Shown piece after piece: positions 1 through 32,000 of a stretch of 32,000 nt of DNA (within the stretch, counting starts at the first letter, position 1; each line of letters opens with the position of its first letter). Source of the stretch: Candidatus Saganbacteria bacterium (GTDB lineage: Bacteria; Margulisbacteria; WOR-1; JAKLHX01); the NCBI GenBank assembly GCA_026387835.1, contig JAPLKZ010000007.1:199291-231290 (forward strand), read 5' to 3'. The notes under the pieces were generated by a model. It did no database searches. It was not told where the DNA came from and saw only the letters and a list, made by a program, of their open reading frames with translations. The position numbers and the translations under genes were made by a program.

Positions 1-3016
<3,016 letters not shown>

Positions 3017-3032
<16 letters not shown>

Positions 3033-7598: not shown

Positions 7599-7916
7599 AT
7601 GGGATTATTCAATTTGATGGGTGTATATTGTATTATTCCGGTGACGATCTATCTGACGATCAGTTTTTTTGTACTTTTTGTGGTCGGAAAAACTGATTCT
7701 AAGAATCTCAAAATATTCGGAAATGTTATAGCAGTTCTGCTTTGGGTGAGCGCGTTGCTGATACTGATAGCAGGCATATGGATGATGACGACGGGTGACA
7801 GGCCTTGGAATCACTGCTGCAAAATGGATGGCAGGTCCATGATGCACATGAAGATGATGGGCGGCATGAAGGACAAGGGGGGTTCTCCGGCGATGCATCC
7901 GATGATGAGGAGATAA
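7599..7916 (+). CDS. small membrane protein (two hydrophobic helices) with a Met/His/Cys-rich C-terminal tail; hypothetical, possibly metal-binding
   Basis: A strong SD AAGGGGGG lies about 6 nt upstream of the ATG. Two TM-like segments are present (YCIIPVTIYLTISFFVLFVV and VIAVLLWVSALLILIAGIWMM). The tail reads WNHCCKMDGRSMMHMKMMGGMKDKGGSPAMHPMM. A terminator follows at 7942-7967. Confidence 0.55.
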   Translation: MGLFNLMGVYCIIPVTIYLTISFFVLFVVGKTDSKNLKIFGNVIAVLLWVSALLILIAGIWMMTTGDRPWNHCCKMDGRSMMHMKMMGGMKDKGGSPAMHPMMRR

Positions 7917-15685: not shown

Positions 15686-15692
15686 ATATAGT

Positions 15693-16928: not shown

Positions 16929-18130
16929 TTTTTTATTATGATGCTCGAGTTGTTGCCAGCAAAAGCAAAATTATTTGACATTGATATATCGAACGTCTTG
17001 GGCCTTGATCTGTTCGGGACATAATCCAGATCGCAGGCAGGGTCGGGCGTTTCGTAGTTTATTGTCGGAGGAATAAAGGATCCCCGCATGGCCAGTATGC
17101 ATGCGATTATTTCAATTATCCCTGCCGCTCCCAAAGCATGACCGGTCATGGATTTAGTAGAGCTTACCGGTATTTCGTAGGCATTTTCCCCGAAAGCTCC
17201 TTTTATGGCTTTTGTCTCCATTTCATCATTTTGCTGTGTCCCGGTGCCGTGAGCATTAATATATTCAACGGCATCCGTTCGCAAATGTGCGTCCTCAAGA
17301 GCGGCTTTCATCGCAAGGGCCGCTCCCCTGCCGCTCGGGTCGGGCGATGTCTCATGATAAGCATCGCTGCTGTTACCGTAGCCGAGTATCTCCGCATAGA
17401 TCATGGCCTTTCTCTTTAGAGCATGTTCAAGTTCTTCCAGGATCAGGATCCCCGCCCCTTCTCCCAGCAATAAACCCGACCTGTTCTTATCGAACGGCTG
17501 GCATTTTTTTTCGGCAAGACCTCTTAAAGAATGGAAACCATAATAAGCGATATCGAACAGGTCCTCGGCTCCTCCCGTGAAACATATTTCTGACAAGCCG
17601 TTTCCGATCAGATCGGATGCGATCATTACGGAATTCAGAGATGAGGAGCAGGCTGTCGAAACCGTCAAAGAGGGCCCTTTGAGGTCATAATATGACGCGA
17701 TAGCCTTTGCGGGTCCGTAAGCGGTATTAGCGACAAGCTGTTCGGGTTTTAAACCGCTGATATCCTTTTCTGTAATGATCTTTCTAAAGATGACTTTTAA
17801 GGATTCGATAGAACCCTGGGACAGGCCGAAGACCGATCCTATCCTGTAAGGATCCTCGTCTTTAAAACATATTTTGGAGTCCTTCACGGCCTGTACGGCA
17901 GAAATATGTATCATGTCCAGGGCCCTGTAAGAATACGGGAAATTTACCGCAGGGAGATCCTTTATTTCACAGGCTATATGGACGCGCAGGCCGTTTGTAT
18001 CAAACAGCGTGACCGGGGCCACACCTGAAACTCCGTTCTTGAGATTTAAAGCATATTCATCGATGGAGTTGCCGATCGAAGACAAAACTCCCATGCCCGT
18101 TACAACCACCCTTTTAGACCGGTTTGGCAA
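16913..18130 (-). CDS. beta-ketoacyl-ACP synthase (FabF/KAS II-like, intact C-H-H triad)
   Basis: Motifs are RVVVTGMGVLSSIGN, TVSTACSSSLNSV (active-site Cys), NAHGTGTQQND and KSMTGHALGAAG. The start is uncertain. The TTG at 18130 has AGGAAAGAG about 7 nt upstream and gives MPNRSKRVVVTG; the alternative is the TTG at 18178 used by the track. Confidence 0.85.
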   Translation of the reverse strand: MPNRSKRVVVTGMGVLSSIGNSIDEYALNLKNGVSGVAPVTLFDTNGLRVHIACEIKDLPAVNFPYSYRALDMIHISAVQAVKDSKICFKDEDPYRIGSVFGLSQGSIESLKVIFRKIITEKDISGLKPEQLVANTAYGPAKAIASYYDLKGPSLTVSTACSSSLNSVMIASDLIGNGLSEICFTGGAEDLFDIAYYGFHSLRGLAEKKCQPFDKNRSGLLLGEGAGILILEELEHALKRKAMIYAEILGYGNSSDAYHETSPDPSGRGAALAMKAALEDAHLRTDAVEYINAHGTGTQQNDEMETKAIKGAFGENAYEIPVSSTKSMTGHALGAAGIIEIIACILAMRGSFIPPTINYETPDPACDLDYVPNRSRPKTFDISMSNNFAFAGNNSSIIIKKWKTK

Positions 18131-18584
18131 TTTCGATCTCTTTCCTGATAAATAATGATATCTCGCTTTCAAAGACAAGCTCGCCGTTTGAATGTATCGT
18201 GCCTTTAGCTATCAGAAAGTCCCCGATTTTATCGGTGAATTCAGTTTTTATTATAAGCTCATCCGAAAACCCGACACTTTTTAACATATGACAGTTTTTG
18301 AACGAGACAATAAAATGTGAAAAATTAGACCCAGGTTCATTGTCGCTGTTGTCCATCTTTATCATATCCGGGACAAAAAATTCGGCCAGGTTCATCGATT
18401 GGGCCAGGCATTCAAGAAGTATCGTGCCCGGGACGGAAAATTCATTGCGGAGAACGGGGTCGTTCTTTGAAAACCGTTTTTTGCATAAAATATAATTGCT
18501 TTTGGCCTCGATGAATTCGTCGATAAATACGAAAGGCGGTTTGTGCTTGTAAAAAGGTTCAAAGACCAGGTCGTTGATTAACAC
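18114..18584 (-). CDS. FabZ/FabA-like hot-dog fold dehydratase, atypical active-site region
   Basis: The sequence reads HKPPFVFIDEF...KNDPVLRNEFSVPGTILLECLAQS, compared with FabZ PHRFPFLLVD...[26 protein letters not shown]. The Glu of the E..AQ motif is kept, but the GHFP His aligns with NEFS. A GTG start at 18584 lies 3 nt after the ACP stop. Confidence 0.6.
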   Translation of the reverse strand: MLINDLVFEPFYKHKPPFVFIDEFIEAKSNYILCKKRFSKNDPVLRNEFSVPGTILLECLAQSMNLAEFFVPDMIKMDNSDNEPGSNFSHFIVSFKNCHMLKSVGFSDELIIKTEFTDKIGDFLIAKGTIHSNGELVFESEISLFIRKEIEIAKPV

Positions 18585-18587
18585 TTC

Positions 18588-18893
18588 TTATTTCATTTTG
18601 CTTTTTATGAAGTTAGCCATTGTGCCGATATCTTTAAATATTGCTTCAGGGCTTTTGAGGTCTTCGTTAGTGATCTTTACCCCGAAATTCTTATCGATCC
18701 CGACTATTATTTCCAGAGAATCTATCGAATCAAGACCGAGGGAATCGGAGTCAGGCGGCCTATTTTGAGGGCGGCTTTCCTGTGCCATGTTAAAAAGCTG
18801 CGTCCGTTCGTTGATGTCCTCGGGCCGGATATTCAGGTTTAATTGAGTGATCAGCATCTCCTTTAATTTTTGCAGGATCTCATGATATTCCAT
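18588..18893 (-). CDS. acyl carrier protein (discrete, type II)
   Basis: It is 101 aa. The phosphopantetheine attachment motif is LGLDSIDSLEIIVGIDKNFGV (DSxxSLE). An SD AAGGAG lies 7 nt upstream of the ATG at 18893. Confidence 0.8.
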   Translation of the reverse strand: MEYHEILQKLKEMLITQLNLNIRPEDINERTQLFNMAQESRPQNRPPDSDSLGLDSIDSLEIIVGIDKNFGVKITNEDLKSPEAIFKDIGTMANFIKSKMK

Positions 18894-18903
18894 ATAAATC
18901 TCC

Positions 18904-19638
18904 TTAGTTTATTAGACCACCGTCAACGATGATCTGTTGTCCCTGAATATATGATGCCTCACCCGAGGCAAGAAAAGCAACTACAGATGCGACTTCAGAC
19001 GGCCTGCCGTACCTCTTTAAAGGAATAGCTTCCCGATATCTGTCAAGTATATGTTCCGGGATCGACAAAACCATATCAGTGTCTATCAGTCCGGGAAGGA
19101 CGCAATTGACGGTTATTCCGTAACCGGACAGTTCCTTTGAAAGCGCATTTGAAAAACCGATCACCCCAGCTTTTGAAGCGGCGTAACTTGTCTGTCCTGC
19201 CGCACCGTTCTTTGCCGCGATCGAACTTATGTTGATTATCTTCCCGCTCTTGCGTGAGATCATGTGCTTGGAGACGGCTTTGCAGCAATAAAAAGTGCCG
19301 TAAAGATTTGTCTTCAGGGTGAGATCGAAGTCATCATTGGGAGTAGTCAGAAGGAAGCTGTTTTTTACTAAACCCGCATTATTTACGAGTACATCGATCT
19401 TTCCGCATTTGCCGATTATCTCCTCGGCCATGCTCTCAACCTCGCAAAAATTACTTACATCAGCTTTGGCTAACATCCCCTGCCCTTCTATTTCACGCAG
19501 CAGTTCCTGTGCCGCGGCCGTGCTCTTGTTGAAGTTTATGGCGACAAAATAGCCGAGCCCATGAAAGGCCTTTACGATGGCTTTGCCTATTCCGCCTGTG
19601 CCGCCGGTTACCAGGACGACTTTATTTTCGAGCGCCAT
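18904..19638 (-). CDS. SDR-family 3-oxoacyl-ACP reductase (FabG-like ketoreductase)
   Basis: Motifs are VVLVTGGTGGIGKAI (TGxxxGxG), NNAG and SS...YAASKAG (S-YxxxK). The preferred start is MALENK at 19638. The track start at 19656 is a TTG lying inside the predicted -10 box. Confidence 0.85.
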   Translation of the reverse strand: MALENKVVLVTGGTGGIGKAIVKAFHGLGYFVAINFNKSTAAAQELLREIEGQGMLAKADVSNFCEVESMAEEIIGKCGKIDVLVNNAGLVKNSFLLTTPNDDFDLTLKTNLYGTFYCCKAVSKHMISRKSGKIINISSIAAKNGAAGQTSYAASKAGVIGFSNALSKELSGYGITVNCVLPGLIDTDMVLSIPEHILDRYREAIPLKRYGRPSEVASVVAFLASGEASYIQGQQIIVDGGLIN

Positions 19639-19647
19639 AATAAATGT

Positions 19648-19699
19648 ATTATACAAAACATAAAATATATTTGCAAATAAAAAACAAATATGATAGTAT
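19648..19699. promoter_or_regulatory. back-to-back divergent promoters sharing one palindromic -35 hexamer TTGCAA
   Basis: TTGCAA at 19671-19676 is self-complementary. Leftward, a 17-nt spacer leads to a consensus TATAAT at 19653-19648 (minus strand), 9 nt before the KR ATG at 19638. Rightward, a 17-nt spacer containing TG at 19691-19692 leads to TAGTAT at 19694-19699, upstream of the acyltransferase ATG at 19722. Confidence 0.45.
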
Positions 19700-19721
19700 T
19701 TAAAAAATAATCGGTCAGGTT

Positions 19722-20441
19722 ATGAAAAACTTTTTTATATATAGCGGTATTATTGTTATAATAGTTGTGTTTGTAATTGCTAGATTGGTAGATCTGTTGC
19801 TCAATATTTTTTCAAATGACAAAGAACTTGACGCCCAGAAATTTCTATATAAGTGGTCGCACAGATTATTTTGGGTGATAAATTCCAAGGTTGAATTCTC
19901 CGGCCTCGAAAATATCCCCGCGACCGGCCCGGTGATCATTGTGGCAAGGTACAGGTTCCCCATAGATCTTATAATATCCACAGCAATTTTTAAGAGAAAA
20001 GTATATCTTGCCGTGGATTCGACATTTTTTGTTTTTCCGCTTTCATTTATGAGCAAAAGCGCAGGATATCTGAACATTGACAACAAGAATCTTTTGATCG
20101 CGGCGCAGCAGATGGATAAGACAATAGAAAAGCTCAGGGCGGGTTCGGCTATTTTTATGTTCATAAGCAGAAGGACAGACATTGACAGTCCCGTTCACGG
20201 CCCCGCTTTTGCGTCCCTTGAAACTAATATCCCGGTCATCCCTATTGCGATAAATTCGACCCCGGAATTATCTGTATTCACTAATTTTATATATGGCATG
20301 TTCGTCCGTAAAAAGGTGTTAGATGTCATTAAGGTCAGGATCGGAGAGCCAATAATGTCAAATGAGCAAAATGACAGGATCGGAAGGGTTAAGTTCACAG
20401 AAGAAATAGTCAGAAAGATCGATTCGATGCTGAAAAAATAG
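19722..20441 (+). CDS. PlsC/LPLAT-like acyltransferase with an N-terminal TM helix and degenerate catalytic motifs
   Basis: The N-terminal TM segment is FIYSGIIVIIVVFVIARLV. The block order resembles 1-acyl-sn-glycerol-3-phosphate acyltransferases: GLENIPATGPVIIVARYRFPIDLI (versus NHxSxxD), AGYLNIDN, AIFMFISRRT (versus FPEGTR) and NIPVIPIAI (versus VPIVPV). The HX4D His is replaced by Tyr. Confidence 0.5.
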   Translation: MKNFFIYSGIIVIIVVFVIARLVDLLLNIFSNDKELDAQKFLYKWSHRLFWVINSKVEFSGLENIPATGPVIIVARYRFPIDLIISTAIFKRKVYLAVDSTFFVFPLSFMSKSAGYLNIDNKNLLIAAQQMDKTIEKLRAGSAIFMFISRRTDIDSPVHGPAFASLETNIPVIPIAINSTPELSVFTNFIYGMFVRKKVLDVIKVRIGEPIMSNEQNDRIGRVKFTEEIVRKIDSMLKK

Positions 20442-20518
20442 TTCTTACAATACGACCTCAGTTATAAATGAACTCCTGATTTCCATTGTTTGTATTATTT
20501 AGGAGAACGGCATTCCGC

Positions 20519-23500
20519 TCAGCACATAAAGTTGTTATTACCGTTTTTGTCGGGTTCGCCGGTTATCGGATCTATTTTTTTTATTGAACCGGCACATATA
20601 GTATTACTGTCCTTGCTGTTGAGCATATCTTCTATTTTGGCCTTCAGGTCTTTTCCGATGCTGTCATTGTCCACTCTTAAGATCGCTTTCTTTACATATT
20701 CGGAATTAGATACCAACGCCAGTTGAGACAAGACGGCTATGGCATCTTTGGTCTCGAGTACTGAAAGTATATAGGCGGCCACTTCAGGCTTGAAATTCCT
20801 TAAGAATTTAGCCGTCTCCTCCGGTCCCATCCCATTAGCGATAATCTGAGAAAGGGCTACCTTGGCAGATTCTTTGGTTGCAAATGTCAATATGCTGCTC
20901 ACCGCGACCTGTTCGATCTTCGGCTTGACGATGTCTTGGTCGGCAGGATCCTTTACAGTGGCTGTCATGAACAGCTGGGAATTGATCTGATCGAACATCT
21001 TCCGCATGATCTTATCGGTCTCATCCTTTAACGCGGGAGATCCCGGAAGATTTGATATAGTGCTTACGAGATTAAGCAGCTTTGGCATCGACACATTTAT
21101 ATCCGGCTTATCAGTAAGGGTCGAGATCATGCCGATGATCTTGCTTGCGGCGATTGCCGGGTTTTCAAGTATCATTTTGGCGATATAGTCATTTGATGCG
21201 TTGCCCTCAAGAAGTTTTAGTGCTGTCTGTGCTGCCTGCTTGCACGTAATATTCGTTGAAGTGTTTTGCAGTGATTCTACGGCATTTTCAAGCTTGCTGA
21301 TCACCAATTGTTTTGTGCTTTCTTTGATATTCGATCCGGTCACCAAAGCTTTTACCTGCGTAAGCGTATCCTGCGCTTCTTCAGGCTTTGAGAAGTTCTT
21401 CTGTTTAAGTCCGTAGATGATGTTCTTTGCGTTTGCCGCGCTTGTGGGATCAAGTTTAGCCGATATGCTGTTAAGGAACTGTTCGATCGGTTTCTTCAAC
21501 GATTTTATTTGAGCCTCGGTTTCGTTGCCCGAAGCGGATATCCTTTTGGCGTTGTCTGCCCTGTTCTTTATTCCTATTGCTATCCTTAATATAGATGCGT
21601 CTTCATTATTTAATTTATTGTTTTTATCGGCATTTATCTCCGCCTCAATTTTCTTCATTTCGTTTTCATCAAATACCCCTTTGGTTTCGTTAGTAACTGA
21701 TGAAGCAGTTGAACTCCTTGATACTTGCTTGTCATCTCTGAACGTATCAGGCCTTATGGCAGCCTGCGCCTGGTTGATGACTACAGGGCTCTGTGTCGTC
21801 CTCATTATGTTCTCGGCTATCTCAACGGCTTTTACGGCCTGTTTTGTCTCCTTGGCAATAGCCATCACCTGATGCTGTTTCTGCGGCTCAAGGTTCAATA
21901 TGATCTGCGCCGCCTGCGTGGGTTCCTTATCCTTAACCGCCTGGACTATCATCTGTGTCGGCACCACATCAAGCACTTTTGCAGCTTCAGTGGCCGTCAT
22001 CTCGCCTTTGATGACCTTAGAGACCACCTGCGAGACCGCTTTCTGTACAGCCTGTTCTGCCTTGCTTACCACTACGTTGGTATTCATGTCCTTGGGCACG
22101 TCGGTCGATACCTTGGAAAGTACCGCCACCAGGTCTTTTACCGCTGCCGTGTTGTTGGCGCTTATCTCGTCATCTATTACTATTATTATCTGGTTTATTA
22201 CATCTTCTGCCTTTTTGGGATTATCCATCACCATCTGTACAACTTTATCTTCCGTTGTAGGCTTCATGTTCATTGCCTGAGGTGCATGCTGTGCTTCCTT
22301 CACAGGTGTATATGAGGTCGGCATGCTTTCAGCCTGCTTCACCTGCGGTTTATTGACTACAGGAGCGGCCTGCACGGCTGTTTTGACTTGAGGCTCTATA
22401 ACAGCCTGCGGAGCAGCTTCCATTTTCTGCGTGATCTTCTCTATCGCCTTGTCTAAGGCCACCGTGATTCTGATATTGTTCGGTACCGCTGCTTTTACTT
22501 CTTCAAGCGCTATCACTATCTGCTGCATATTCTCCGGATTCACTTTCTTTTCCGAATGTTCTATGACAGCAGGGATCATTCTTGCCACTTTGTCGATCAT
22601 GTTGGGCTTGCTTGTTATAGCCCGCACAACATCTTCCACCGGCTTGTTGTTGACTATATCGTTCACCGCTTTCTGTGCCGCATCTTTTGCCCTTACGTTG
22701 ACAGAGGTATTGTCCACTGCTTCCATGGCCTGCGTCAGCTTTTGTGCTATGACCTCTTTCACTTTTTCGTTGATCTTTGCACCGTTTGCCATGTCCTTCA
22801 CCTGAGATATGAACCTCGCCACTTTTTCCGTGTTCGTGAAGTCGGCTTTCTTTATCTCTGAGCTCATGTCCTTTGCTTTTTTGGCCTCTGTTTGCGGCAG
22901 CTTCTCCGCTATCTGTGTCAGGAGCTGTTCCATTGGCTTCTTTAAGGCATTGAGCTGCGTCGCGGGGTCAACGGCTTTTTGGGATGCCTCTTTAGCGGCT
23001 AGAGCCCCGTTCTTTATGACGATGACTGTGGATACTATCCTTGTATCCGCCTTGCTGGCCTTGGACAAACTCTTCATATTGCTCATCTCCGCCCTTATCA
23101 TATCTGTTTCTAACCTTGTGAACTCCTCATCAGTAGAGACCTCTTTGGACGCTTCAGTTGTCGGGGCTTGTTCTACCTGCCTGGGATTCCTGAATGAATC
23201 CTGCATTATGATTGGCTGAGCCTGGATGCCGGCTGGAGATACCTGGTTCCTCCTGGTGTTCTCGGCTATAACTACAGCTTTGATAGCTTGTTGTTTCTCA
23301 TTGGCCATAGCGATCACCTGATGCCGTTTTCCAGGTTCAAGATTGACTATCACCATAGCCGCTGCCTCAGGACTCGCCTTTGCCATGGCTCTCACTGTCA
23401 CTTCAGCAGGAACGTTGTTAAGCGCTGTGGCCGCTTCTTCAGGAGTTATCTTGCCTTCGGCGACCTTTGAGATAACCAGCGAAACGGCTTTCTGTACCTC

Positions 23501-26500
23501 CTCCTGTACTTGCGGTCTGGTAACTGCAGGTGCGGGGTGTTTAGTTGTTTCGACCTGCGGCTGTTGTATGATCGCCTGCGGTGCGGTTTTCATATTTTGA
23601 ATGATCTTTTCTATCGCTTTGTCTATGGCTACGGATACGGGGATGTTCCTCGGATCGGATGTTTTTACTTGTTCAAGGGCGATCACTATCTGCTGGACGT
23701 TCTCAGGCTTTACCGGCTTTTCAGACTGCTCTATGACGATCGGGATCATCCTTGCCATTTTGTCTATCATATTTGGCTTGCTTCTTATTGCCTGTACCAC
23801 CTGGTCCACCGGCATGTTTCTGACTATATTGGCAACTACCTTGATGGCTACCTCTTTTGCCTTTACATTGTCGGAGGTGTTCTCTACAGCTTCCTTGGCC
23901 CGCGTCAGCTTTTGTGCAATTACTTCTTTTACCTTGTCATTGACCTGGGCCTTGCTTGCCAGGTCCTTTATACGATCCATGAAATTAACAACATCTTCGG
24001 TATTAGTGAAACTGGCTCCCTTTATCTCCGAGATCATTTCCTTTGCTTTTTTGGCCTCAGTCGGCTGTAGCTTTGCCGCTATCTGTGTCAGAAGCTGTTC
24101 CATAGGCTTCTTTAATGCATTGAGCTGCGTCGTGGTATCAAGTGCGTTCAGTGATGCCCGCTCAGCGACTTCAGCGCTCCTCTTTATCCTGACGGCTGCG
24201 GATAACATCATCATCTCAGCCTTGTTGGCTTTGGGTGCGGTCGCGTTGTTCACTTCCGTTTGTACTTGGGTTATCTCTGCTGCTAAGGTTATATCTTCTA
24301 GCATAGTGGCACTGGACATTGCAACTGTTGAAGCTCTTGGTGTTTGCACGGTGTCATTGGATCTATCCGATCTTGCGGCAGCCGGTGTCTGGTTGACGGC
24401 CGGCGTCATCAGTTTGCTCATGATCCTCTCGGCTATCTCCGCCGCTCTGACGGCTTGGTTTGTATCCTTGGCCACGGTGATCACCTGCTGTTGTTTCTGC
24501 GGTTCAAGCCTTATTATGATCATTGCCGCCTGCGATGGCTCCATATCTTTAACTGCGGGCACTATCATCTGCGCGGGCAGCACTTCAAGCATCTTTGCCG
24601 CTTCTGAGGCCGATATCTCGCTCGTCGAGACTTTAGCCACTATCTTGGAGGCCATATTTTGCGCGTTTTTTGCAGCCATCTCGAGCACGGACACGGATTC
24701 TTTCTCCGATCGGGTCATTGATACTGGCGTTCTATCTATGATCGTGCTGAGGACCGACAATAGTTCGCTGGCACTTGTGACATTGTTGGCCTTGACCGCC
24801 TTGTCGGTGGCTGTGGTGATCTGGTTGACCTTGTCTTTTGCTTCCTCGGGCTTTACGATCGCTAACGTCATTACTTCGTTCTGCAGGCTTTGTTTTACAT
24901 TGATCGCTTCACTTCTGACTGCAGGTTTGCTCACAGGTCTTGATGCTGGCTGCGGTTTTTCCACCCTTGTGGCAATATCTGTTAAAATGTCATCGATTAT
25001 TTTATCGACCGCACTTTTGATATTTTCAACATTGGAACGTGTTATTTTTGCGTATTCTGCTGCTGTTTTGTTATACTGCTCTTCCGGGACGATAAGCTTG
25101 ATCAAGGCCAGATTGTTTAATGCATTCGGCATCGTGGAAAGCGCGGATGCTGATAAAGCCTCGCGTATGATATCATTGACGCTGCGAGTTGTCTTTGTTC
25201 TGTCTGCTGGCTTTATCTGCACTTCAGGAGAGACGGTTTGATCTTTGCTCGACGTTAATAATGATATGACATTTGGCGGATGCTGCACCAAGTCCCTCGC
25301 CTTGAGTATTTGAGACTCTTTGGCATTCATTATTCTCTTGGTGAATGCATCGGCGACCTTTTGAAAGTTTGCGGAATCGGTCTTGTAAAGCTTTGCCAAG
25401 GCCTGCCCCTCTGATTTCAGAAAATTGTTTTGCATCTCAAGCTTTTCGCTGGCGCTGGCCTTGCTGAATTTATCCAGGAATTCTTGAGGCATTGTGAGGG
25501 TATTTGTTTTTGTGTCAAATTGCGGTAGTTTCCCTGTGTCCGTGCCCACGACTACGTTGATCTGTTCTTTAGATCCCGAGTTGACATAGAGACTGGCCAT
25601 TTCGTCCCTTCCCGGCTTTTGTATGGAGCCGGCAATTTTGTAAAATTTATCGATATTGGCCTGGGTCAAGTTGTCCGTATTGTACCCTAATTGTTTCAGG
25701 TTATTTTTCGCATCTGCCAATAAGTTCTGGTCCACGGTCTTTCCGTCAGCCTTGTATATGCCCTTAGCGGCGCTCTCCATCGGGTCGTACTTGCCGATGT
25801 TGTTGACGATGCTCATTATCATTTCCTTTATCAGGCCGCTCAGGGTCATTTTCTCATCGAGTTCCCTTAAGAACTGCTGGTAAAAGGCTTCAGCGTCGAA
25901 CATCGCTGTTGACGCGTCCACCTGGGCCTGAAGCTGCAGCTGTTCCGTCATGGCGAAGACGTTTGGTTTTGCGGCCGCGCCGCCGCCGGCTTTGCCTGCG
26001 CCTCCCGCGGCATTGGCTGAACCTCCGGCACTGTCTATATTTAAATTCTTTCCTTCTTTTTTCTTTGCATTGCCCTTGTTTATTGCGTTTGCTATCATCT
26101 TTGCCAGGTTATCGCTGAATAATACAGCGACAAGTGCCTTTGCAACATAGGAAGCGGCTCTACCGCCCATTGCCGGGGTAAGCAGCTTCTGGGCCCAGGT
26201 CGATACAGCGGTGTTCGAGTTTGTCATATTCATGAACCTGTCTTTTCCTTTAAAAAATGAGGATAAATTTGAAAGAGGGCCGCCGCCGTTAGAATTAAAA
26301 AGATGTGAGGCTTTCTTCGCTGCTTCTTGTTTTTCTCTTGCTTCCTTTTGCGCATCAGTTTCTTGTTTGTTAGCATTTTGAGGTTTTTCTGATTGATTTG
26401 GTTGTGTGGATTGACTTTCTGATGTGCCTGATGTGCCTGATGTGCCTGTTGTACCTTCGCCGCCGAATTCTAAACCACCGTCTACCGGGTAAGTCCCGTC

Positions 26501-29500
26501 TGCGCTTCCCTCTTTCTCTTGAACTTGTGTTTTACCGGAAGTATCCGCATTTTTTGCCGGGTCATTTTTCACTTCTTTCGCAGCATCTTTAGAAGGCAAA
26601 CCTTCTGCATTTTCCATTGTATTTGATCCGGGAGTAGTTGTACCTTCGGTACCTCCGGTGGTGACATTACCGCCGGCATCGGCACCTCCCGCGTCGGCAG
26701 CTCCAACGCATGCCGCGACGATCGAGATGACCGCCTTGACTATCGATATGATGAACATGATGTTCGCCATAACGAGTGCTTTCTCGGCATCCCTGATCTG
26801 GTTCATCCTGTCCACGTAGGTATGGAGTGTGTCGAACAGCTGCTGCAGCGCTGTGGTCGAGACTTCCTTGCTCGCTTGAATGCCCATCAGCGTATAATCC
26901 TGGGCATCCAGCGCTATGCCGCCCACGGACCTGAGCACCATGTTCCTTATTCTCCTCTGAGAGTCCATTACTTCCTGTGAAGCTGTCGCGGCGTTATAGG
27001 CCATGTCTATCTCTCTTCTCATGATATAGAAATTGCTTTGGTTCAACCCCACGTAGCCGTCGCTCGTGCTGACGATCAGGTCTTCCGTTGCCTGGGAAAG
27101 GATCTCTTTTAATGATTGATAGAGTTTGTCGAAACGGCCCTGGTCTTTTTGTTTGTCGATGATCTTCAGGACCTCGTCAAGGATATTTGTTTTATACCTG
27201 TCGAGGTCGCCGTACCCGGAATTTTTGTCTTCCTCGGCGCACTTTTTGTTATAGTAAGCCTGCATTATGACGATGGCCGCGATGATGACGGCGGCAACGA
27301 TCGCCCCGACGCCGGTGCAGGCCAGCACTGCGGCGACGATCTCCATTATAATCTTCACTGCCGAGAACCAGAGATTGGTCATTGCCCGGTCAAGCTGCTT
27401 TTCCCACTGTGTCCGTGCGTTATGCGCGCTTATGTTCTCCCGGACCAGTTCCGTCTTCAGTTGAAGTGCCTGCATATATCTTGCGTTCATGGACTTCAGG
27501 CCGTTCGATATGGTCTGGAAATGTCTTGCCGTCCATCCGATTCTTCCCATCAGCTGGAGCATAAGGTCGATGATCTCTTGTCCGGTGGTCTCTATCTGCA
27601 TCATCCCCAGTCCGAGCATAAAAAGCTGCGACATCTCATCGGATAATGCGGTGATCTGTGCCGCGTCGTTCCCCCACATGTCGTCGCCCACGTTTATATG
27701 GGACCCGGTAGTCAGCTGGTCGACAAGGCCTCTGTACTGCGTGGCGATATCGCTGATCGCATCCGCGACCATATTGCCGGTGATGCGTCTTTCTGTTTTA
27801 TTGTCGTAAAATTTATCATCTTCATGATAAAGTTCCGGCTTTTCGTGTTCCAGCAGGTACATAATGTTATAAATTCCATCAAAAAGACCTTGTCCCATCA
27901 TACCGCCTATGATGAAGCCGAGCATATTTGCGAAAAAGCTCCCGATTATTTTTTCTTTTTCAAGTTCCCATTCTCTTTCCTTGTTGTTTTCCTCGACCTC
28001 GTCCCTGAGGCTCTGCATGACGAGGGAAAAAGCCACCTTCATGTCGTCCTCTAAGGTTACTAACGAATCCTCGACTGCCGGAAGCTCTTCGCCCAGCGGG
28101 TTTTGTCCTGTGGCCGCGTAAAGGGCGATCATCACGAGGCGCGCTTTTGATTCCATCACCAGCATATACGCTTTTCTTAAGTTGTCGATGCTCTCGAGCT
28201 TGTCGCCTATACTGTTCAGATATTCTTCGTTCAAAGCTTTGAACCCGTCGCCGACCCCTATTATGCCCCCGTTATAAGCGGTCATGATAAGATCGTTTTC
28301 TTCTTTGTCCAGCTGGTCGAGGATGTTATTGCATATCGACTTCATCGAGATGCCCCACAGGTTCAATGCTTCCTCGACATTGTCGAAATTGATCCTTGTC
28401 GGTGTATACTGGAAATCCTCGATGGTCAACAGATATATGACATCGGTAATTTTTTCCACAAAACTGGCGACAAAAAAAAGTGCGGGGCAGAACAAGCAGA
28501 TGCCGAATGCCGTCCACATCGAGTCCAGCATTTCTTTTGCTTTTTCATGTTCCCACACTGAATAGGCGTATTTGTTGCGCGCCTCTATCTCCAGTTGCAG
28601 CTGGTTTATGTTGGCCAGCAATAATGTTCTTTCGCCGTCCGTGGTGTATTTGAGATAATCAAAGACCATGTTCCATCTTGATGAGTCGGAGGTTATCCCC
28701 GACATTATCTCGATCATCATGGATTTGAGCTTTTCTTTCACGGAGAGCGACATGTAATAGGCTTTTCTCAGGTCGTTGATTATCGTTTGTCCGTGGAGTA
28801 TGGCGTATGCCAGGTCTTTGTTCAGGTCGTAATAACTATTCCCGTAGCCGTTATCGCCGGCTGCTGCCATCAGATACTGGCGGTTGGCCTCGTCCAGATA
28901 ATTCAGTTCGAGTTTGACGAACGGGTCGGCGGTCCTCCTCTTTCTTTCTTCGATCACCACGTCGAGGAAGCCTTTAAGAGTGTCCGTCAGACTGGCCTGC
29001 ACGTCCTTAAATGCTCTATCGATCGCTTCTTTTGCCGCGGTGTATTTTTCCTCGTACTCTCTGTGCGTCGCGTCGAGTCCGATGAAATCAAGAAGTGAAT
29101 TGATACAGCTGGAGGACCCGCCTTGTGCGGAAGCTTGCGCGCCCAGCATTTTTCTGTCATATTCCGCGTTGTTTTTATCATGTATGTAGTTCATCGTGTT
29201 GGTAAATATGAACTTTGGCCCCTGCATATCATGCCTGAAGCCTTTATTTATGATCTCAGTGTATTTGACGTCCCTGGAAGAGGCCTCCTTAGGCCCTTTA
29301 AAAAGCTGGAGAATGTAGCCCTTGATGTTTTCCTTAGTTTCGCCGATCATCGCGATACCGAGAAGCAGCGACCATAATTCCTGCAGCTTGTAATAATAGT
29401 CTTTGAATTTCGGATCAAGCGTGATATAACCGTCGCCGTAATCTGTTGTCCATGTCGATGAGGAATTCCCCGCCAGAAGTATGTCCAGGGTTTGCTTGAT

Positions 29501-29842
29501 CTCCGCTCCGAGCCCTTCTACCGCCTGTGCTACCGCGTCCGGTTCTGCAACCTGATAATTATAATTGACGGGTGTTATCGCGGTGCTTTCGTTATCATAG
29601 GTTAAAGGCTGGTTCACGACATAGTTGCCCTGAGTATCAACAGTGTCAAGTTGTTCGGCATCGAAAACAGTTGCGTTGCTGTCTGTGTTGTCTGATGGAG
29701 TTGATACACCGTCAGCTGATGTGTTTGCCATTAAAGCATCAAAGGTTGATACAGTTGTGGAATAATTGACCTGACCCGTGATATTGGCATTCACGTCAGT
29801 GCGGGTTGTCTGATCAGGAATATCTATAGTTGTAGTGCTCAT
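20519..29842 (-). CDS. giant (3107 aa) multi-pass membrane / long-tandem-repeat protein of unknown function
   Basis: It is a single 9324-nt ORF with no internal stop. Hydrophobic TM-like segments are at about aa 441-461, 632-655, 823-862 (double length) and 1022-1048. G/T/S/A/K/E-rich low-complexity linkers span about aa 1048-1300. Long tandem repeats span aa 1724-3107. There is no N-terminal signal-peptide-like segment and no SD upstream of the ATG. I recognised no catalytic motif. Confidence 0.85.
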   Translation of the reverse strand: MSTTTIDIPDQTTRTDVNANITGQVNYSTTVSTFDALMANTSADGVSTPSDNTDSNATVFDAEQLDTVDTQGNYVVNQPLTYDNESTAITPVNYNYQVAEPDAVAQAVEGLGAEIKQTLDILLAGNSSSTWTTDYGDGYITLDPKFKDYYYKLQELWSLLLGIAMIGETKENIKGYILQLFKGPKEASSRDVKYTEIINKGFRHDMQGPKFIFTNTMNYIHDKNNAEYDRKMLGAQASAQGGSSSCINSLLDFIGLDATHREYEEKYTAAKEAIDRAFKDVQASLTDTLKGFLDVVIEERKRRTADPFVKLELNYLDEANRQYLMAAAGDNGYGNSYYDLNKDLAYAILHGQTIINDLRKAYYMSLSVKEKLKSMMIEIMSGITSDSSRWNMVFDYLKYTTDGERTLLLANINQLQLEIEARNKYAYSVWEHEKAKEMLDSMWTAFGICLFCPALFFVASFVEKITDVIYLLTIEDFQYTPTRINFDNVEEALNLWGISMKSICNNILDQLDKEENDLIMTAYNGGIIGVGDGFKALNEEYLNSIGDKLESIDNLRKAYMLVMESKARLVMIALYAATGQNPLGEELPAVEDSLVTLEDDMKVAFSLVMQSLRDEVEENNKEREWELEKEKIIGSFFANMLGFIIGGMMGQGLFDGIYNIMYLLEHEKPELYHEDDKFYDNKTERRITGNMVADAISDIATQYRGLVDQLTTGSHINVGDDMWGNDAAQITALSDEMSQLFMLGLGMMQIETTGQEIIDLMLQLMGRIGWTARHFQTISNGLKSMNARYMQALQLKTELVRENISAHNARTQWEKQLDRAMTNLWFSAVKIIMEIVAAVLACTGVGAIVAAVIIAAIVIMQAYYNKKCAEEDKNSGYGDLDRYKTNILDEVLKIIDKQKDQGRFDKLYQSLKEILSQATEDLIVSTSDGYVGLNQSNFYIMRREIDMAYNAATASQEVMDSQRRIRNMVLRSVGGIALDAQDYTLMGIQASKEVSTTALQQLFDTLHTYVDRMNQIRDAEKALVMANIMFIISIVKAVISIVAACVGAADAGGADAGGNVTTGGTEGTTTPGSNTMENAEGLPSKDAAKEVKNDPAKNADTSGKTQVQEKEGSADGTYPVDGGLEFGGEGTTGTSGTSGTSESQSTQPNQSEKPQNANKQETDAQKEAREKQEAAKKASHLFNSNGGGPLSNLSSFFKGKDRFMNMTNSNTAVSTWAQKLLTPAMGGRAASYVAKALVAVLFSDNLAKMIANAINKGNAKKKEGKNLNIDSAGGSANAAGGAGKAGGGAAAKPNVFAMTEQLQLQAQVDASTAMFDAEAFYQQFLRELDEKMTLSGLIKEMIMSIVNNIGKYDPMESAAKGIYKADGKTVDQNLLADAKNNLKQLGYNTDNLTQANIDKFYKIAGSIQKPGRDEMASLYVNSGSKEQINVVVGTDTGKLPQFDTKTNTLTMPQEFLDKFSKASASEKLEMQNNFLKSEGQALAKLYKTDSANFQKVADAFTKRIMNAKESQILKARDLVQHPPNVISLLTSSKDQTVSPEVQIKPADRTKTTRSVNDIIREALSASALSTMPNALNNLALIKLIVPEEQYNKTAAEYAKITRSNVENIKSAVDKIIDDILTDIATRVEKPQPASRPVSKPAVRSEAINVKQSLQNEVMTLAIVKPEEAKDKVNQITTATDKAVKANNVTSASELLSVLSTIIDRTPVSMTRSEKESVSVLEMAAKNAQNMASKIVAKVSTSEISASEAAKMLEVLPAQMIVPAVKDMEPSQAAMIIIRLEPQKQQQVITVAKDTNQAVRAAEIAERIMSKLMTPAVNQTPAAARSDRSNDTVQTPRASTVAMSSATMLEDITLAAEITQVQTEVNNATAPKANKAEMMMLSAAVRIKRSAEVAERASLNALDTTTQLNALKKPMEQLLTQIAAKLQPTEAKKAKEMISEIKGASFTNTEDVVNFMDRIKDLASKAQVNDKVKEVIAQKLTRAKEAVENTSDNVKAKEVAIKVVANIVRNMPVDQVVQAIRSKPNMIDKMARMIPIVIEQSEKPVKPENVQQIVIALEQVKTSDPRNIPVSVAIDKAIEKIIQNMKTAPQAIIQQPQVETTKHPAPAVTRPQVQEEVQKAVSLVISKVAEGKITPEEAATALNNVPAEVTVRAMAKASPEAAAMVIVNLEPGKRHQVIAMANEKQQAIKAVVIAENTRRNQVSPAGIQAQPIIMQDSFRNPRQVEQAPTTEASKEVSTDEEFTRLETDMIRAEMSNMKSLSKASKADTRIVSTVIVIKNGALAAKEASQKAVDPATQLNALKKPMEQLLTQIAEKLPQTEAKKAKDMSSEIKKADFTNTEKVARFISQVKDMANGAKINEKVKEVIAQKLTQAMEAVDNTSVNVRAKDAAQKAVNDIVNNKPVEDVVRAITSKPNMIDKVARMIPAVIEHSEKKVNPENMQQIVIALEEVKAAVPNNIRITVALDKAIEKITQKMEAAPQAVIEPQVKTAVQAAPVVNKPQVKQAESMPTSYTPVKEAQHAPQAMNMKPTTEDKVVQMVMDNPKKAEDVINQIIIVIDDEISANNTAAVKDLVAVLSKVSTDVPKDMNTNVVVSKAEQAVQKAVSQVVSKVIKGEMTATEAAKVLDVVPTQMIVQAVKDKEPTQAAQIILNLEPQKQHQVMAIAKETKQAVKAVEIAENIMRTTQSPVVINQAQAAIRPDTFRDDKQVSRSSTASSVTNETKGVFDENEMKKIEAEINADKNNKLNNEDASILRIAIGIKNRADNAKRISASGNETEAQIKSLKKPIEQFLNSISAKLDPTSAANAKNIIYGLKQKNFSKPEEAQDTLTQVKALVTGSNIKESTKQLVISKLENAVESLQNTSTNITCKQAAQTALKLLEGNASNDYIAKMILENPAIAASKIIGMISTLTDKPDINVSMPKLLNLVSTISNLPGSPALKDETDKIMRKMFDQINSQLFMTATVKDPADQDIVKPKIEQVAVSSILTFATKESAKVALSQIIANGMGPEETAKFLRNFKPEVAAYILSVLETKDAIAVLSQLALVSNSEYVKKAILRVDNDSIGKDLKAKIEDMLNSKDSNTICAGSIKKIDPITGEPDKNGNNNFMC
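20522..24673 (-). repeat. about 3.3 in-frame long tandem repeats (units ~389, ~482, ~396 and a truncated ~117 aa) forming the C-terminal 45% of the giant protein
   Basis: Unit boundaries from repeated landmarks are 23507-24673, 22061-23506, 20873-22060 and 20522-20872. Landmarks include EAAKMLEVLPAQMIVPAVKDMEPSQAAMIIIRLEPQKQQQV (aa 1747), EAATALNNVPAEVTVRAMAKASPEAAAMVIVNLEPGKRHQV (2135), EAAKVLDVVPTQMIVQAVKDKEPTQAAQIILNLEPQKQHQV (2619) and ETAKFLRNFKPEVAAYILSVLETKDAIAVLSQL (3009). TQLNALKKPMEQLLTQIA is identical at aa 1905 and 2295, a period of 390 aa or 1170 nt. The antisense shadow ORFs at 22431 and 23601 also start with the same peptide, MIFSIALS. Confidence 0.85.
26421..26447 (-). repeat. 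perfect 9-nt x3 tandem repeat (gatgtgcct) encoding GTSGTSGTS in a low-complexity linker of the giant protein
   Basis: Read directly: gatgtgcct occurs at 26421-26429, 26430-26438 and 26439-26447. It is in frame, so copy-number change would only alter linker length. Confidence 0.8.
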
Positions 29843-29965: not shown

Positions 29966-31135
29966 TCAGGTATTTGCTTTTCTTGCTTTGTTATCTGACC
30001 CGATAGCCATTGCTATCGAACGGGCGATCTCTTCCGGTGTGTTGAGGGTTGGATAAGTTAAAACTTCATTCATTCTTTTTCGTGCGTTTGACGACGCGAA
30101 AGTTGTTTCAAGTGACTTCATAAATTCCTGTGCCCTTAAACGGACCTTTTCCGTTATTTTTGAATCCGCTAATTTTTGTTCGTGCCTCTTCTCATATGCT
30201 GTTTCATTCTCTTTCTCATCTGCCTTTCTTGCCTCGATAATGCCGGCCAATATTCTTTTAGCCATCCTCAGAGCTGACTCGTACACTTCAGTTGCCGCAG
30301 TCCATATTTTTGTAATTATTGTTATAACTTTAGGCATGTCTGCGTCAACAGCGGTTTCGTTCTTTGCTATTTGCGGCATTTCCTTGATCGGTGTCGCTGA
30401 AATGGCGCGCATCTGCTCCAATAAAGCGGGATCAATTTTAATGTCATTTTCTGTTGCGATAGATATAAGTTTGGTTGCCTGCTCCCCGCATGCTGTGATC
30501 TCTTTTTCGATCATCGATCTGGCCGGTTGCTTGTCTTTAAACTTTTCTCGCATTGCATTAAGCATATCATTCATCTTTTTGATGGCCTCAGCATCACCAG
30601 TGATGACTATGATCACATATTGTTTATTATGGTTTTTCAGGATTATTTCGGTCTGGACTGCGATTTGAGAATTGTAGCCGGATTCTTGAGCGTGATAAGA
30701 TGATAGTAATTCTTTTAAACTTATAGAATCGTCATTATGCCCGCAATATCCCAAAAAATCCTGTTTTGATCTTCTCAATGATTGTTCTGTTCTTATTCGG
30801 TTTTCTGTTGCACCGTTATTTCCTTCACCTTCTTGTTTCCTGAAATTAAGAATGGCTTCCTGGTGTTTTTTCATTTCCGACAGATAGCTGCGACCTACGG
30901 CAAAAGGTCTCATATAGGAAATAGTGTCGATCATAAAAGAAAAACGCTCCGTAGTCGCGAAAGGGAACTTTTCCTGTTCTTGCGTAAAAGAACCGAGTAC
31001 CCTGTAAGCAGGTCTTGATAGGTCGGGAACAGGTGTAATGACAGTTCTTGGCGTTGCCGTTGTACGCGATGTTAAGCCGTTCCCGGTTTCCTGTATCTTA
31101 GGATCGGTTTTAACAAGCGCAGGATCGGGCAACAT
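29966..31135 (-). CDS. hypothetical protein (389 aa), no recognisable motifs; predicted helical, K/E-rich C-terminal half
   Basis: A good SD GGGAGA lies 7 nt upstream of the ATG at 31135. It is co-directional with the giant ORF and 123 nt upstream of it. There are no TM segments. The sequence reads MLPDPALVKTDPKIQETGNG... Confidence 0.6.
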   Translation of the reverse strand: MLPDPALVKTDPKIQETGNGLTSRTTATPRTVITPVPDLSRPAYRVLGSFTQEQEKFPFATTERFSFMIDTISYMRPFAVGRSYLSEMKKHQEAILNFRKQEGEGNNGATENRIRTEQSLRRSKQDFLGYCGHNDDSISLKELLSSYHAQESGYNSQIAVQTEIILKNHNKQYVIIVITGDAEAIKKMNDMLNAMREKFKDKQPARSMIEKEITACGEQATKLISIATENDIKIDPALLEQMRAISATPIKEMPQIAKNETAVDADMPKVITIITKIWTAATEVYESALRMAKRILAGIIEARKADEKENETAYEKRHEQKLADSKITEKVRLRAQEFMKSLETTFASSNARKRMNEVLTYPTLNTPEEIARSIAMAIGSDNKARKANT

Positions 31136-31202: not shown

Positions 31203-31499
31203 CTAAACCGGCTTATCTGGACTGAATATATTGCTTTTGTCCGGTTTCTTTGCCTGTTCAGGCGTCATTTCTTTGTCTTTAATGACAGGAAGGCTATTAT
31301 TCAGTTTACCTTGGTAATAGTTTTCCACGACTGCCTGTAAACCATTCATCACTAATTCTGGCATGTTCGCTATTGCTGCTGCCGCGCTATTTACTATATC
31401 TAATCTTGCCTGTGCCACTCTTGCCTGTCCCGGTTCGCCATATAATTTCTGTATTGGCGGTGATCCTTGTTGTTTAGCTTGTATATATATATATGTCAT
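31203..31499 (-). CDS. hypothetical small protein (98 aa)
   Basis: An SD AGGAGA lies 5-6 nt upstream of the ATG at 31499, 10 nt after the upstream stop. The sequence reads MTYIYIQAKQQGSPPIQKLYGEPGQARVAQARLDIVNSAAAAIANMPELV... The C-terminus is Pro/Lys-rich. Confidence 0.45.
   Translation of the reverse strand: MTYIYIQAKQQGSPPIQKLYGEPGQARVAQARLDIVNSAAAAIANMPELVMNGLQAVVENYYQGKLNNSLPVIKDKEMTPEQAKKPDKSNIFSPDKPV
31482..31494 (-). repeat. (TA)6-type tract inside codons 2-6 of the 98-aa ORF
   Basis: tatatatatatat at 31482-31494 encodes TYIYI directly after the ATG at 31499-31497. Confidence 0.8.
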
Positions 31500-31509
31500 T
31501 GTTTTTCTC

Positions 31510-31773
31510 CTACACTACCCTTCCCGTTCCTTCATCCGAAGATGCGATCCCTACTCTGTTCACAGGGAGTGGCGTCTTATCGAAGCCCGCCAATCTCTGG
31601 ATATTCTTCACTGTCTCAAAGGCTCCTTTTACTTGTCCAAACTGTTTTATTGCTTCTGTCAGGCTCGCAAGAGCAAGCCATTTGCTATCCTCCGTTTTTG
31701 CCGGCACGCCACCATTGCCTTTGATTCCCGCCATAAATATTGTCCCATTGATCGGATCCATATCCATGCCCAT
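31510..31773 (-). CDS. hypothetical small protein (87 aa)
   Basis: A consensus SD AAGGAGGA lies about 7 nt upstream of the ATG at 31773 (MGMDMDPINGTIFMAGIKGNGG...). The track start at 31806 lacks an SD and overlaps the upstream ORF. Confidence 0.45.
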   Translation of the reverse strand: MGMDMDPINGTIFMAGIKGNGGVPAKTEDSKWLALASLTEAIKQFGQVKGAFETVKNIQRLAGFDKTPLPVNRVGIASSDEGTGRVV

Positions 31774-31786
31774 AATATTATCCTCC

Positions 31787-32000
31787 TTACGATCCCCGTT
31801 GAGCATCTAGGACTGAAACGCCTCTCTTATCACTTTGCCTAGAACCGGCCACTGTTTTACTGAAAATGTTATAATTTACCAGGTTAAAGGTATTTTCATA
31901 ATAATTATCTACTGTATCCTTGAACTTTTTATTCCAGAATTTTTCGACTCCCGAGCCGCCCAGATCGATTGCAGTTTTCAGTTGTTTCAGTTTTTCCAGC
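31787..32000 (-). CDS. hypothetical protein, C-terminal 70 aa only (gene enters from beyond the window)
   Basis: My own translation of the reverse strand from 31999 (one of the three reverse frames) gives LEKLKQLKTAIDLGGSGVEKFWNKKFKDTVDNYYENTFNLVNYNIFSKTVAGSRQSDKRGVSVLDAQRGS and then TAA at 31789-31787. The stop is embedded in the next gene's SD region. Confidence 0.4.
   Translation of the reverse strand, partial: LEKLKQLKTAIDLGGSGVEKFWNKKFKDTVDNYYENTFNLVNYNIFSKTVAGSRQSDKRGVSVLDAQRGS

Follow-up and report, generated by a model that had tools for sequence, protein, structure and literature searches.

A single gene of more than nine kilobases, deposited so far solely as a hypothetical protein, raises the question of what such a large product could do in the cell and which proteins it could work with. 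The gene lies in a stretch of 32,000 nucleotides (nt) of Candidatus Saganbacteria DNA (assembly GCA_026387835.1, contig JAPLKZ010000007.1, positions 199,291 to 231,290), called the window below, and the list of open reading frames (ORFs) places it at 20519..29842 on the minus strand, with 3107 amino acids (aa) counted from an ATG codon. In GenBank, the gene is found on a 249-kb contig under the accession MCX5749335.1 as ‘hypothetical protein [Candidatus Saganbacteria bacterium]’, and no description of the protein, referred to here as the giant, or of its operon was found in the literature. We tentatively favor the view that the giant is a docking scaffold on the cytoplasmic face of the membrane, which is anchored by hydrophobic hairpins and forms part of an apparatus that is specific to the lineage and that its own operon encodes.

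The ORF is not a product of chance, as the original prediction, made from the sequence alone, had argued. The coding frame contains only the terminal stop, the other two frames contain 263 and 146 stops, and the probability of 3107 stop-free codons at the base composition of the window is about 1e-72. Logan assemblies of four sequencing runs (including ERR15302179, ERR15302175, and ERR15302198), which were reached via the 389-aa protein encoded upstream of the giant, contain the locus with at most 2 nt of difference from the window. A 49.8-kb Logan contig (L001) carries the complete gene, called at 3107 aa; the gene ends at the contig edge in two further contigs, and a fourth includes its first 456 nt only. 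Compared with three of these assemblies, the window shows an A>G and a T>G difference at 27535-27544 (gene nt 2299 and 2308), which are the sole differences over a 12-kb overlap and lead to R767G and W770G in a low-confidence loop of module D, described below.

An assembly chimera had been named as a risk together with the original prediction, and none was found. It is hardly conceivable that the ORF is an artefact of assembly or annotation, either chimeric or composed of several fused genes. All of the metagenome assemblies are short-read and the start codon is uncertain, but those of the four runs agree with each other to within 2 nt, and the internal repeats, with a DNA identity of 63-74%, are too divergent for short-read repeat collapse to be a concern. 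Colinear relatives of 1466-4184 aa are also present on independent JGI, ENA, and NCBI contigs, and the chance probability given above argues in the same direction. The start of the giant is M1 or M38, neither of which is preceded by a Shine-Dalgarno sequence; GenBank uses Met38, which results in a protein of 3070 aa. A 546-aa plus-strand ORF (23601-25241) and several ORFs of 100-200 aa run antisense within the gene. We take them to be shadow ORFs favored by the skewed composition (AT skew down to -0.4), and the 546-aa ORF was discounted because of its antisense position inside the giant gene.

All features of the giant described below are encoded on the minus strand. The N-terminal region (aa 1-129, nt 29456..29842) is T/N/S/D-rich and is not conserved in the family of relatives. 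Composition and signal check agree with the earlier description of aa 1-110 as T/N/S/D-rich and devoid of a signal-peptide-like core: this part is rich in T, D, V, N, A, and S, such a core is absent, and no signal peptide was detected in the giant. The region that follows, aa ~130-1055, consists of five tandem homologous modules of ~195 aa each. Module A (aa 130-322, nt 28877..29455), delimited by the AlphaFold (AF2) model and by cross-matches of module profiles, contains the GDGYITLD beta-hairpin and long helices, and a strong hydrophobic segment is absent from it. In module B (aa 323-524, nt 28271..28876), the GNSYYDLN motif is accompanied by a helical stalk and, at aa 441-472 (nt 28427-28522), by a short hydrophobic hairpin. 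Module C (aa 525-712, nt 27707..28270) combines GDGFKALN with a hydrophobic hairpin that is rich in glycine (aa 632-664, nt 27851-27949). The strongest hydrophobic hairpin, which is bilobed, is located at aa 822-866 (nt 27245-27379) in module D (aa 713-920, nt 27083..27706; GDDMWGND), and module E (aa 921-1055, nt 26678..27082; SDGYVGLN) ends in a hydrophobic helix at aa 1020-1052 (nt 26687-26785).

The homology of the modules is evident from hidden Markov models (HMMs) built for each of them from 15 family members, which cross-match in register at aa ~130, 325-333, 526-531, 713-732, and 921-926. The module C HMM matches elsewhere in the giant at aa 133-238 (independent E-value 1.6e-4), 333-449 (5e-7), 717-861 (1.7e-14), and 922-1049 (1.3e-10), and a direct self-match pairs aa 313-436 with aa 508-631. 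In the AlphaFold model of the module region, computed from the family alignment, the modules fold as one body (mean pLDDT, the predicted local distance difference test, 74.4; pTM, the predicted template-modelling score, 0.71). The same order of elements is repeated five times: a GDGYxxLN beta-hairpin, a helix of ~40 aa, a helix of 60-70 aa, a short return helix, and connecting helices. The glycine-rich hydrophobic hairpin of a module is formed in this model by the hydrophobic C-terminal part of the 60-70-aa helix together with the short return helix.

The original prediction counted five or six membrane-spanning segments ~190 aa apart. The spacing is correct and follows from the five homologous modules, while the number is too high, as the giant has four hydrophobic regions (441-472, 632-664, 822-866, and 1020-1052). 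Of these, 822-866 alone forms a bilobed hairpin of full length; the arms of 441-472 and 632-664 are short, and 1020-1052 is a single helix. Most relatives that are colinear over the module region have a hairpin of 40-55 aa in module C. The terminal helix of module E could be scored in 41 relatives and is not transmembrane-like in 34 of them; P0007, P0008, and P0014, all with the same C-terminal repeat arm as the giant, are among the 34. Such family-wide hairpins and a module E helix that is mostly not transmembrane-like point to an even number of membrane passes.

The second half of the giant begins with a linker (aa 1056-1300, nt 25943..26677) of A/G/K/N/T/S-rich low complexity, in keeping with the earlier assignment of aa ~1048-1300. 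An amphipathic helix at aa ~1232-1258 within it resembles segments of several relatives, in a comparison made by eye only. The middle region (aa 1301-1626, nt 24965..25942) has no detectable similarity to any other family member. It is followed by a repeat arm of ~1480 aa (aa 1627 to the end), composed of ~3.5 tandem units of 390-480 aa with a partial unit at each end. The units are 35-51% identical over their whole length and up to 68% identical locally, and self-comparison confirmed the tandem repeats originally read at aa 1724-3107 as three cores with partial units. The tail end of a partial repeat, ‘unit 0’ (aa 1627-1727, nt 24662..24964), matches aa 2496-2599. Unit 1 (aa 1728-2116, nt 23495..24661) consists of a FliG_M/MgtE_N-like head at aa ~1722-1815 and a helical rod. 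Unit 2 (aa 2117-2505, nt 22328..23494), with its head at aa ~2111-2204, is 51% identical to unit 1, and unit 3 (aa 2600-2990, nt 20873..22045), preceded by an extra inter-unit segment (aa 2506-2599) and with its head at aa ~2594-2690, is 35% identical to unit 1. The C-terminal domain (aa 2991-3107, nt 20522..20872) comprises a fourth domain of the same type (Pfam FliG_M at aa 3008-3077), which is conserved at the C-terminus of P0014, and the C-terminus itself. One repeat unit modelled in AlphaFold (pLDDT 77.6) is all-helical, with a head of ~85 aa and a rod of ~250 aa.

The four heads are the one recognizable element in an architecture that otherwise largely remains as unrecognized as the original prediction described it. 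They are ~90-aa helical domains (aa ~1722-1815, 2111-2204, 2594-2690, and 2990-3085) that match profiles of the FliG middle domain and the MgtE N-domain. With the whole giant as query, Pfam gave 24.3 bits for MgtE_N (cutoff 25.9) and 18.3 bits for FliG_M (cutoff 25). When six single copies, four of the giant and two of P0014, were compared with Pfam, MgtE_N was matched by all six (best E 1.2e-5) and FliG_M by four. A profile of the six copies retrieved FliG chains almost exclusively from the PDB (best 8umx_B, E 3.1e-5, FliG residues 112-162), and the structural match of the repeat-unit model to FliG 3hjl in Foldseek was insignificant. FliG_M (PF14841) and MgtE_N (PF03448) belong to one Pfam clan. 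To our knowledge, domains of this type are cytoplasmic in every characterized protein, and we know of none outside the cytoplasm.

The likeness to FliG is restricted to this domain. FliG is a soluble rotor protein of ~330 aa, whereas in the giant the domain heads a tandem repeat of 390-480 aa within a membrane protein of 3107 aa. An identity as a FliG rotor protein was rejected, since there is no FliG_N or FliG_C match, the length and membrane hairpins do not fit, and no flagellar gene is present in the window. Similarly, the giant is not an MgtE magnesium transporter, as no CBS or MgtE channel profile matches it at E <= 1.

An exhaustive HMMER search with aa 111-1055 against 1.84 billion representatives yielded a module family of 42 proteins at E <= 1e-3, 23 of them at E <= 1e-10. 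Its members, of 425-4184 aa, share 20-28% identity with the query; many are colinear with it over the whole module region, and they carry the GDGYxxLN motif and hydrophobic hairpins ~200 aa apart. The C-terminal repeat arm is common only to P0007, P0008, and P0014; in other relatives, the C-terminal region differs and may consist, for example, of a coiled coil or of low-complexity sequence. The two family members named in GenBank come from metagenome-assembled genomes of Saganbacteria and Margulisiibacteriota. When six peptides of the giant were used as exact seeds against 185,579 species genomes of GTDB, no close relative emerged. Judged by sequence, the stalk-plus-hairpin module thus defines a putative new protein family of 42 representative clusters.

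Two observations concern individual relatives. P0017, a protein of 4184 aa (NCBI GCA_964443005.1), occurs without the operon partners described below, and its locus (L102 4012-6208) lies ~4 kb from fliP, fliO, fliN, and fliL, which are on the opposite strand with unrelated genes between; the presence of these flagellar genes suggests that flagellated bacteria are among the carriers of the family. In P0007, the sequence YHEVAHF (aa ~1290-1300, L088) suggested an HExxH metallopeptidase motif. This candidate was dismissed, as P0014 has not kept the motif (EEFGHAIAD) and an alignment made by eye reveals none in the giant.

The giant is encoded at the end of an operon. In the window, it is directly preceded on the same strand by a 389-aa gene (29966..31135), which has neither a Pfam match nor a homologue in the other loci, then by a 98-aa gene (31203..31499) and an 87-aa gene (31510..31773), the two members of a conserved small-gene pair, and by the 3' end of a 445-aa gene (31787..32000). 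The operon continues for ~9 kb past the window (L001 355-9349), and in L001 eleven same-strand genes without a Pfam match, encoding 107, 1021, 252, 68, 548, 346, 67, 445, 87, 98, and 389 aa, lie upstream of the giant gene. About a dozen loci, from JGI, ENA, and NCBI, have retained this arrangement of genes. It begins with a small protein of ~105-140 aa and a large, variable W/Y/N/G-rich protein of 500-1539 aa, followed in some loci by a ~64-aa protein; then come proteins of ~250 aa, ~65 aa, ~530 aa, and 530-700 aa, two small proteins of ~60-110 aa, and finally the giant. Between loci, the ~250-aa protein is 40-47% identical and the ~530-aa protein 31-44%. The gene of the giant family is terminal in all eight metagenome loci that reach far enough past the ~530-aa gene (E 5e-86 to 0), and the operon as a whole measures ~14-30 kb.

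No signal peptide and no transmembrane segment was predicted in the operon partners, and searches against Pfam, NCBIfam, PHROGs, PADLOC, and PDB sequences gave no significant match for them. Most contain 0-0.5% cysteine; N, Q, S, and T are abundant, and the N-termini are rich in these residues. The 1021-aa protein (L001 723-3788), which also has no signal peptide, contains 14% W/Y/F, is N/G/S/T-rich, and includes a poly-threonine tract (TTTTTTDVTTYTTTTTTDP...) and a K/E-rich tail, a composition that looks extracellular.

The operon evolves faster than its surroundings. L091, which is syntenic with the window well past the operon, encodes housekeeping proteins 57-89% identical to those of the window (GroEL 89%, NusA 74%, HisF 68%), while the operon proteins are 22-43% identical and the module region of the giant, at 22%, is the most divergent part. 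Genes of the cell envelope recur beside the loci. In L101, the operon is bounded by ordinary housekeeping genes, with PBP1a, a phosphohexomutase, and a SurA-like protein at one end and glycogen phosphorylase at the opposite end; a sugar-nucleotide transferase precedes it in L091, L094, and L103, and an acyltransferase or a GT2-TPR gene follows the giant in the window, L090, L091, and L103. This siting is a weak hint about the role of the apparatus, and Pfam searches with the genes flanking L101 and with eight further family members provided no functional lead. In L103, which contains the P0031 locus, a second run of about ten genes without a Pfam match (16652-26004; 71-560 aa) follows the acyltransferase and may represent a paralogous system in the same genome.

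Apart from the FliG-type domain, nothing appears to place the giant in a known kind of system, and we rate it as new on the basis of negative searches. The absence of motifs of known giant-protein classes, noted originally, was upheld: Pfam, NCBIfam, PHROGs, PADLOC, PDB sequences, and Foldseek were all without a significant match, and no confident hit to a characterized family (VirB6/TrbL, an adhesin, or a toxin) was found. Sequence and profile searches of PDB sequences with the giant and with alignments A1-A4 gave no match. Foldseek returned nothing at E <= 0.001 for the module and repeat-unit models against the PDB or for the module model against BFVD; for the module model, no PDB match fell below E 0.05, and the top rows were membrane domains of ABC exporters, with query-normalized template-modelling scores (TM-scores) of 0.08-0.14. 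Several specific identities were rejected in the same way. VirB6/TrbL has no profile match, and there are no type IV secretion genes in the window or related loci; neither Pfam (E <= 1) nor NCBIfam contains anything to support an RTX protein, a cadherin/Ig-repeat adhesin, or a nonribosomal peptide or polyketide synthase, and the C-terminus lacks an LPXTG motif. PADLOC rows that could have suggested an anti-phage defence system for the giant or its operon were at chance level (AbiTi at E 0.0024 without a passing stretch, JetC at E 0.009 on a coiled coil).

Of the functions proposed originally, the membrane-anchored scaffold is the better fit and is partly supported, in view of the missing signal peptide, the even-pass hairpins, and the FliG/MgtE_N-type domains. 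In the arrangement that we propose, the inner membrane would hold the giant through its hairpins, the five stalks would make a compact base on the membrane, and the four FliG-type domains of the long C-terminal arm would serve as a series of binding sites, either for operon partners or for contacts between copies of the giant. Given the missing signal peptide and the hairpin form of the conserved hydrophobic elements, the soluble parts, like the two ends, would all stay on the cytoplasmic face. Without a signal peptide, the first 440 residues should remain cytoplasmic, and with hairpin elements and a module E helix that is mostly not transmembrane-like, the chain should come back to the cytoplasm each time. 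Such an organization recalls HubP/FimV, TipN, and EzrA, landmark or scaffold proteins in which a membrane anchor likewise precedes very long cytoplasmic regions, repetitive and largely helical or of low complexity, to which other proteins are recruited. The giant has no sequence or domain relationship to these proteins in Pfam, and instead of the one or two ordinary transmembrane helices that are typical of them, it has five tandem stalk-plus-hairpin modules; nor are those proteins encoded together with a dedicated operon of uncharacterized proteins.

Several observations weigh against a scaffold confined to the cytoplasmic face. The topology is based on simple hydrophobicity scales and parity arguments, and the FliG/MgtE_N matches fall below Pfam's own thresholds. 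For the module E helix of the giant (aa 1028-1046), insertion is predicted, and the 37 residues that follow are free of K and R, a pattern compatible with an N-in/C-out anchor by which the entire C-terminal half would be exported. The hairpins at 441-472 and 632-664 are too short-armed for a standard membrane-spanning pair. In addition, the T/S/G-rich linkers and, in the 1021-aa partner, the poly-threonine tract and the abundance of W, Y, N, and G look more extracellular, and fast divergence of an operon is more usual for exposed or antagonistic proteins.

These observations lead to two other placements of the giant. It may be an exported membrane-inserting translocator or pore-former that leaves the cell with its operon partners by a non-Sec route (a flagellar-type type III secretion system (T3SS) or another system), inserts its glycine-zipper hairpins into a target membrane, and uses its small neighbors as chaperones. 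We consider this unlikely, but the signal-peptide-free, cysteine-poor operon with its N/Q/S/T-rich N-termini agrees with it, as do the disordered, non-conserved N-terminal 130 aa, the long helices flanking the hydrophobic hairpins, the two small genes directly upstream, and the fast divergence of the operon. The translocator-like alternative of the original prediction was neither supported nor refuted, the composition of the operon proteins and their lack of signal peptides being reminiscent of non-Sec-exported proteins. The bilobed 40-55-aa hairpins, flanking long helices, missing signal peptide, and small neighbor genes are also shared with T3SS translocators (SctE/SctB: IpaB, YopB, SseC) and chlamydial Inc proteins. 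The Inc-type bilobed hydrophobic domain of 40-60 aa has counterparts in aa 822-866 and in the 40-55-aa hairpins of the family, a resemblance only, as the organism is not a chlamydia. In the hairpins of relatives, sub-threshold matches to the glycine-zipper families C19orf12-like, DUF456, and DUF6861 were found, P0017 lies near flagellar genes, and the only toxin-like structures listed by Foldseek belong to the ClyA family (Hbl-B 2nrj, NheA, SmhA, and SmhB), which combines an elongated helical bundle with a beta-hairpin and a hydrophobic membrane-inserting element. However, the beta-hairpin of the giant is polar and conserved and its hydrophobic element is helical, the Foldseek probabilities are <= 0.2 with target-normalized TM-scores <= 0.26, and no HlyE/HBL/Nhe profile matches, so that a ClyA-family identity was rejected. 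A translocator of the SseC/YopB/IpaB type was rejected likewise, since no such family, nor any other toxin or translocator profile of Pfam, matches at E <= 1, the PDB profile search with alignment A2 was empty, none of the small operon proteins has a TPR or chaperone profile, and the giant, with five tandem modules, is 5-10 times larger. No T3SS gene, secretion ATPase, or channel gene was found in or beside any locus, an immunity-like gene is absent downstream, and the flagellar genes near P0017 are on the other strand and separated from it by unrelated genes. FliG/MgtE_N-type domains, cytoplasmic where characterized as far as we know, also argue against export.

A surface-exposed stalk, which we regard as rather improbable, would keep the module base at the cytoplasmic face and use the module E helix as an N-in/C-out anchor, with the linker and the ~1500-aa arm directed outward as an adhesin, a spacer, or a part of the envelope or motility apparatus. 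The predicted insertion of this helix (summed apparent free energy -0.7) and its flanking charges (3 K/R before it, none in the 37 residues after) favor such a topology, the linker resembles an exported segment in composition, it is in the C-terminal regions that the family varies, and envelope genes adjoin the loci (sugar-nucleotide transferase, GT2-TPR, PlsC-like acyltransferase, PBP1a, SurA-like protein, and an SLH protein). Nevertheless, the homologous helix is not transmembrane-like in most of the relatives scored, including the three with the same arm, FliG/MgtE_N-type domains are not known to occur outside the cytoplasm, operon partners without signal peptides could not reach an external arm, and Pfam revealed no cell-wall or outer-membrane anchoring motif. 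Very improbable, finally, is a phage origin, with the giant as a tape-measure-like protein and the operon as a degraded prophage or tailocin module. Great length, helical internal repeats, and hydrophobic segments are shared with tape-measure proteins, which together with minor tail proteins are among the top BFVD rows of Foldseek. Yet these matches have E-values of 6e-3 to 1 and TM-scores of ~0.1, no Pfam tape-measure profile matches the giant, and no PHROG match was found for the module region or the operon partners; IMG/VR yielded no relative of the ~530-aa protein conserved in the operon, there is no capsid, portal, terminase, sheath, or baseplate gene, and the locus occupies a syntenic chromosomal position in related genomes. 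An identification as a phage tape-measure protein was therefore rejected.

The setting of the operon is an ordinary chromosome. The window contains ligA, truB, a DHH phosphoesterase gene, rbfA, infB, nusA, and groES/EL, as well as genes for a ROK kinase, hisH, hisF, a methyltransferase, and a GT2-TPR glycosyltransferase. A lipid-type cluster (14573-20441) adjoins the giant and comprises the GT2-TPR glycosyltransferase, two ketosynthases, an ACP, FabG, and a divergent PlsC-type acyltransferase; a 156-aa ORF without a Pfam match is also located there. A 155-aa minus-strand ORF (19715-20182) was discarded, as it shadows the acyltransferase gene on the plus strand. Another ORF, of 105 aa (7599-7916), is located between groEL and nusA; it is present in the Logan gene calls and has no Pfam match. 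Neither tRNA genes nor Rfam families were found in the window, and scans of it for promoters and terminators gave background level only. The GroEL of the window shares 80% identity with the protein of ‘candidate division WOR-1 bacterium RIFOXYB2_FULL_48_7’ and at most 69% with the matches that follow, which come from other phyla. The suggestion that the giant comes from a host-associated lineage found no support, as the organism is a Saganbacteria (WOR-1) bacterium; judging by the JGI sample identifiers, the related loci presumably derive from sediment and landfill-type metagenomes.

Next to nothing is known about the cell biology of Saganbacteria and Margulisiibacteriota, two uncultivated lineages that are sisters of the Cyanobacteria. 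In this poorly known phylum, the locus is a well-defined target without characterized relatives, and its family is small and lineage-restricted. No protein of the ~14-30-kb operon, with its about ten proteins, matches a curated family or a solved structure, and the giant, with a new repeated membrane-anchoring module, stands at its center. It is conceivable, with some doubt, that the giant and its ~nine partners form an unrecognized membrane apparatus of these bacteria, composed of a five-module base and a FliG-type arm and without homology to known secretion, motility, cytoskeletal, or defence systems. If so, the compact operon and the confident single-body AlphaFold model of the module region would make it a tractable target. 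The repeated FliG-type domain would widen the known uses of this fold past flagellar rotors and MgtE. Should the operon indeed encode such a dedicated apparatus, it would represent a new kind of bacterial membrane machine.

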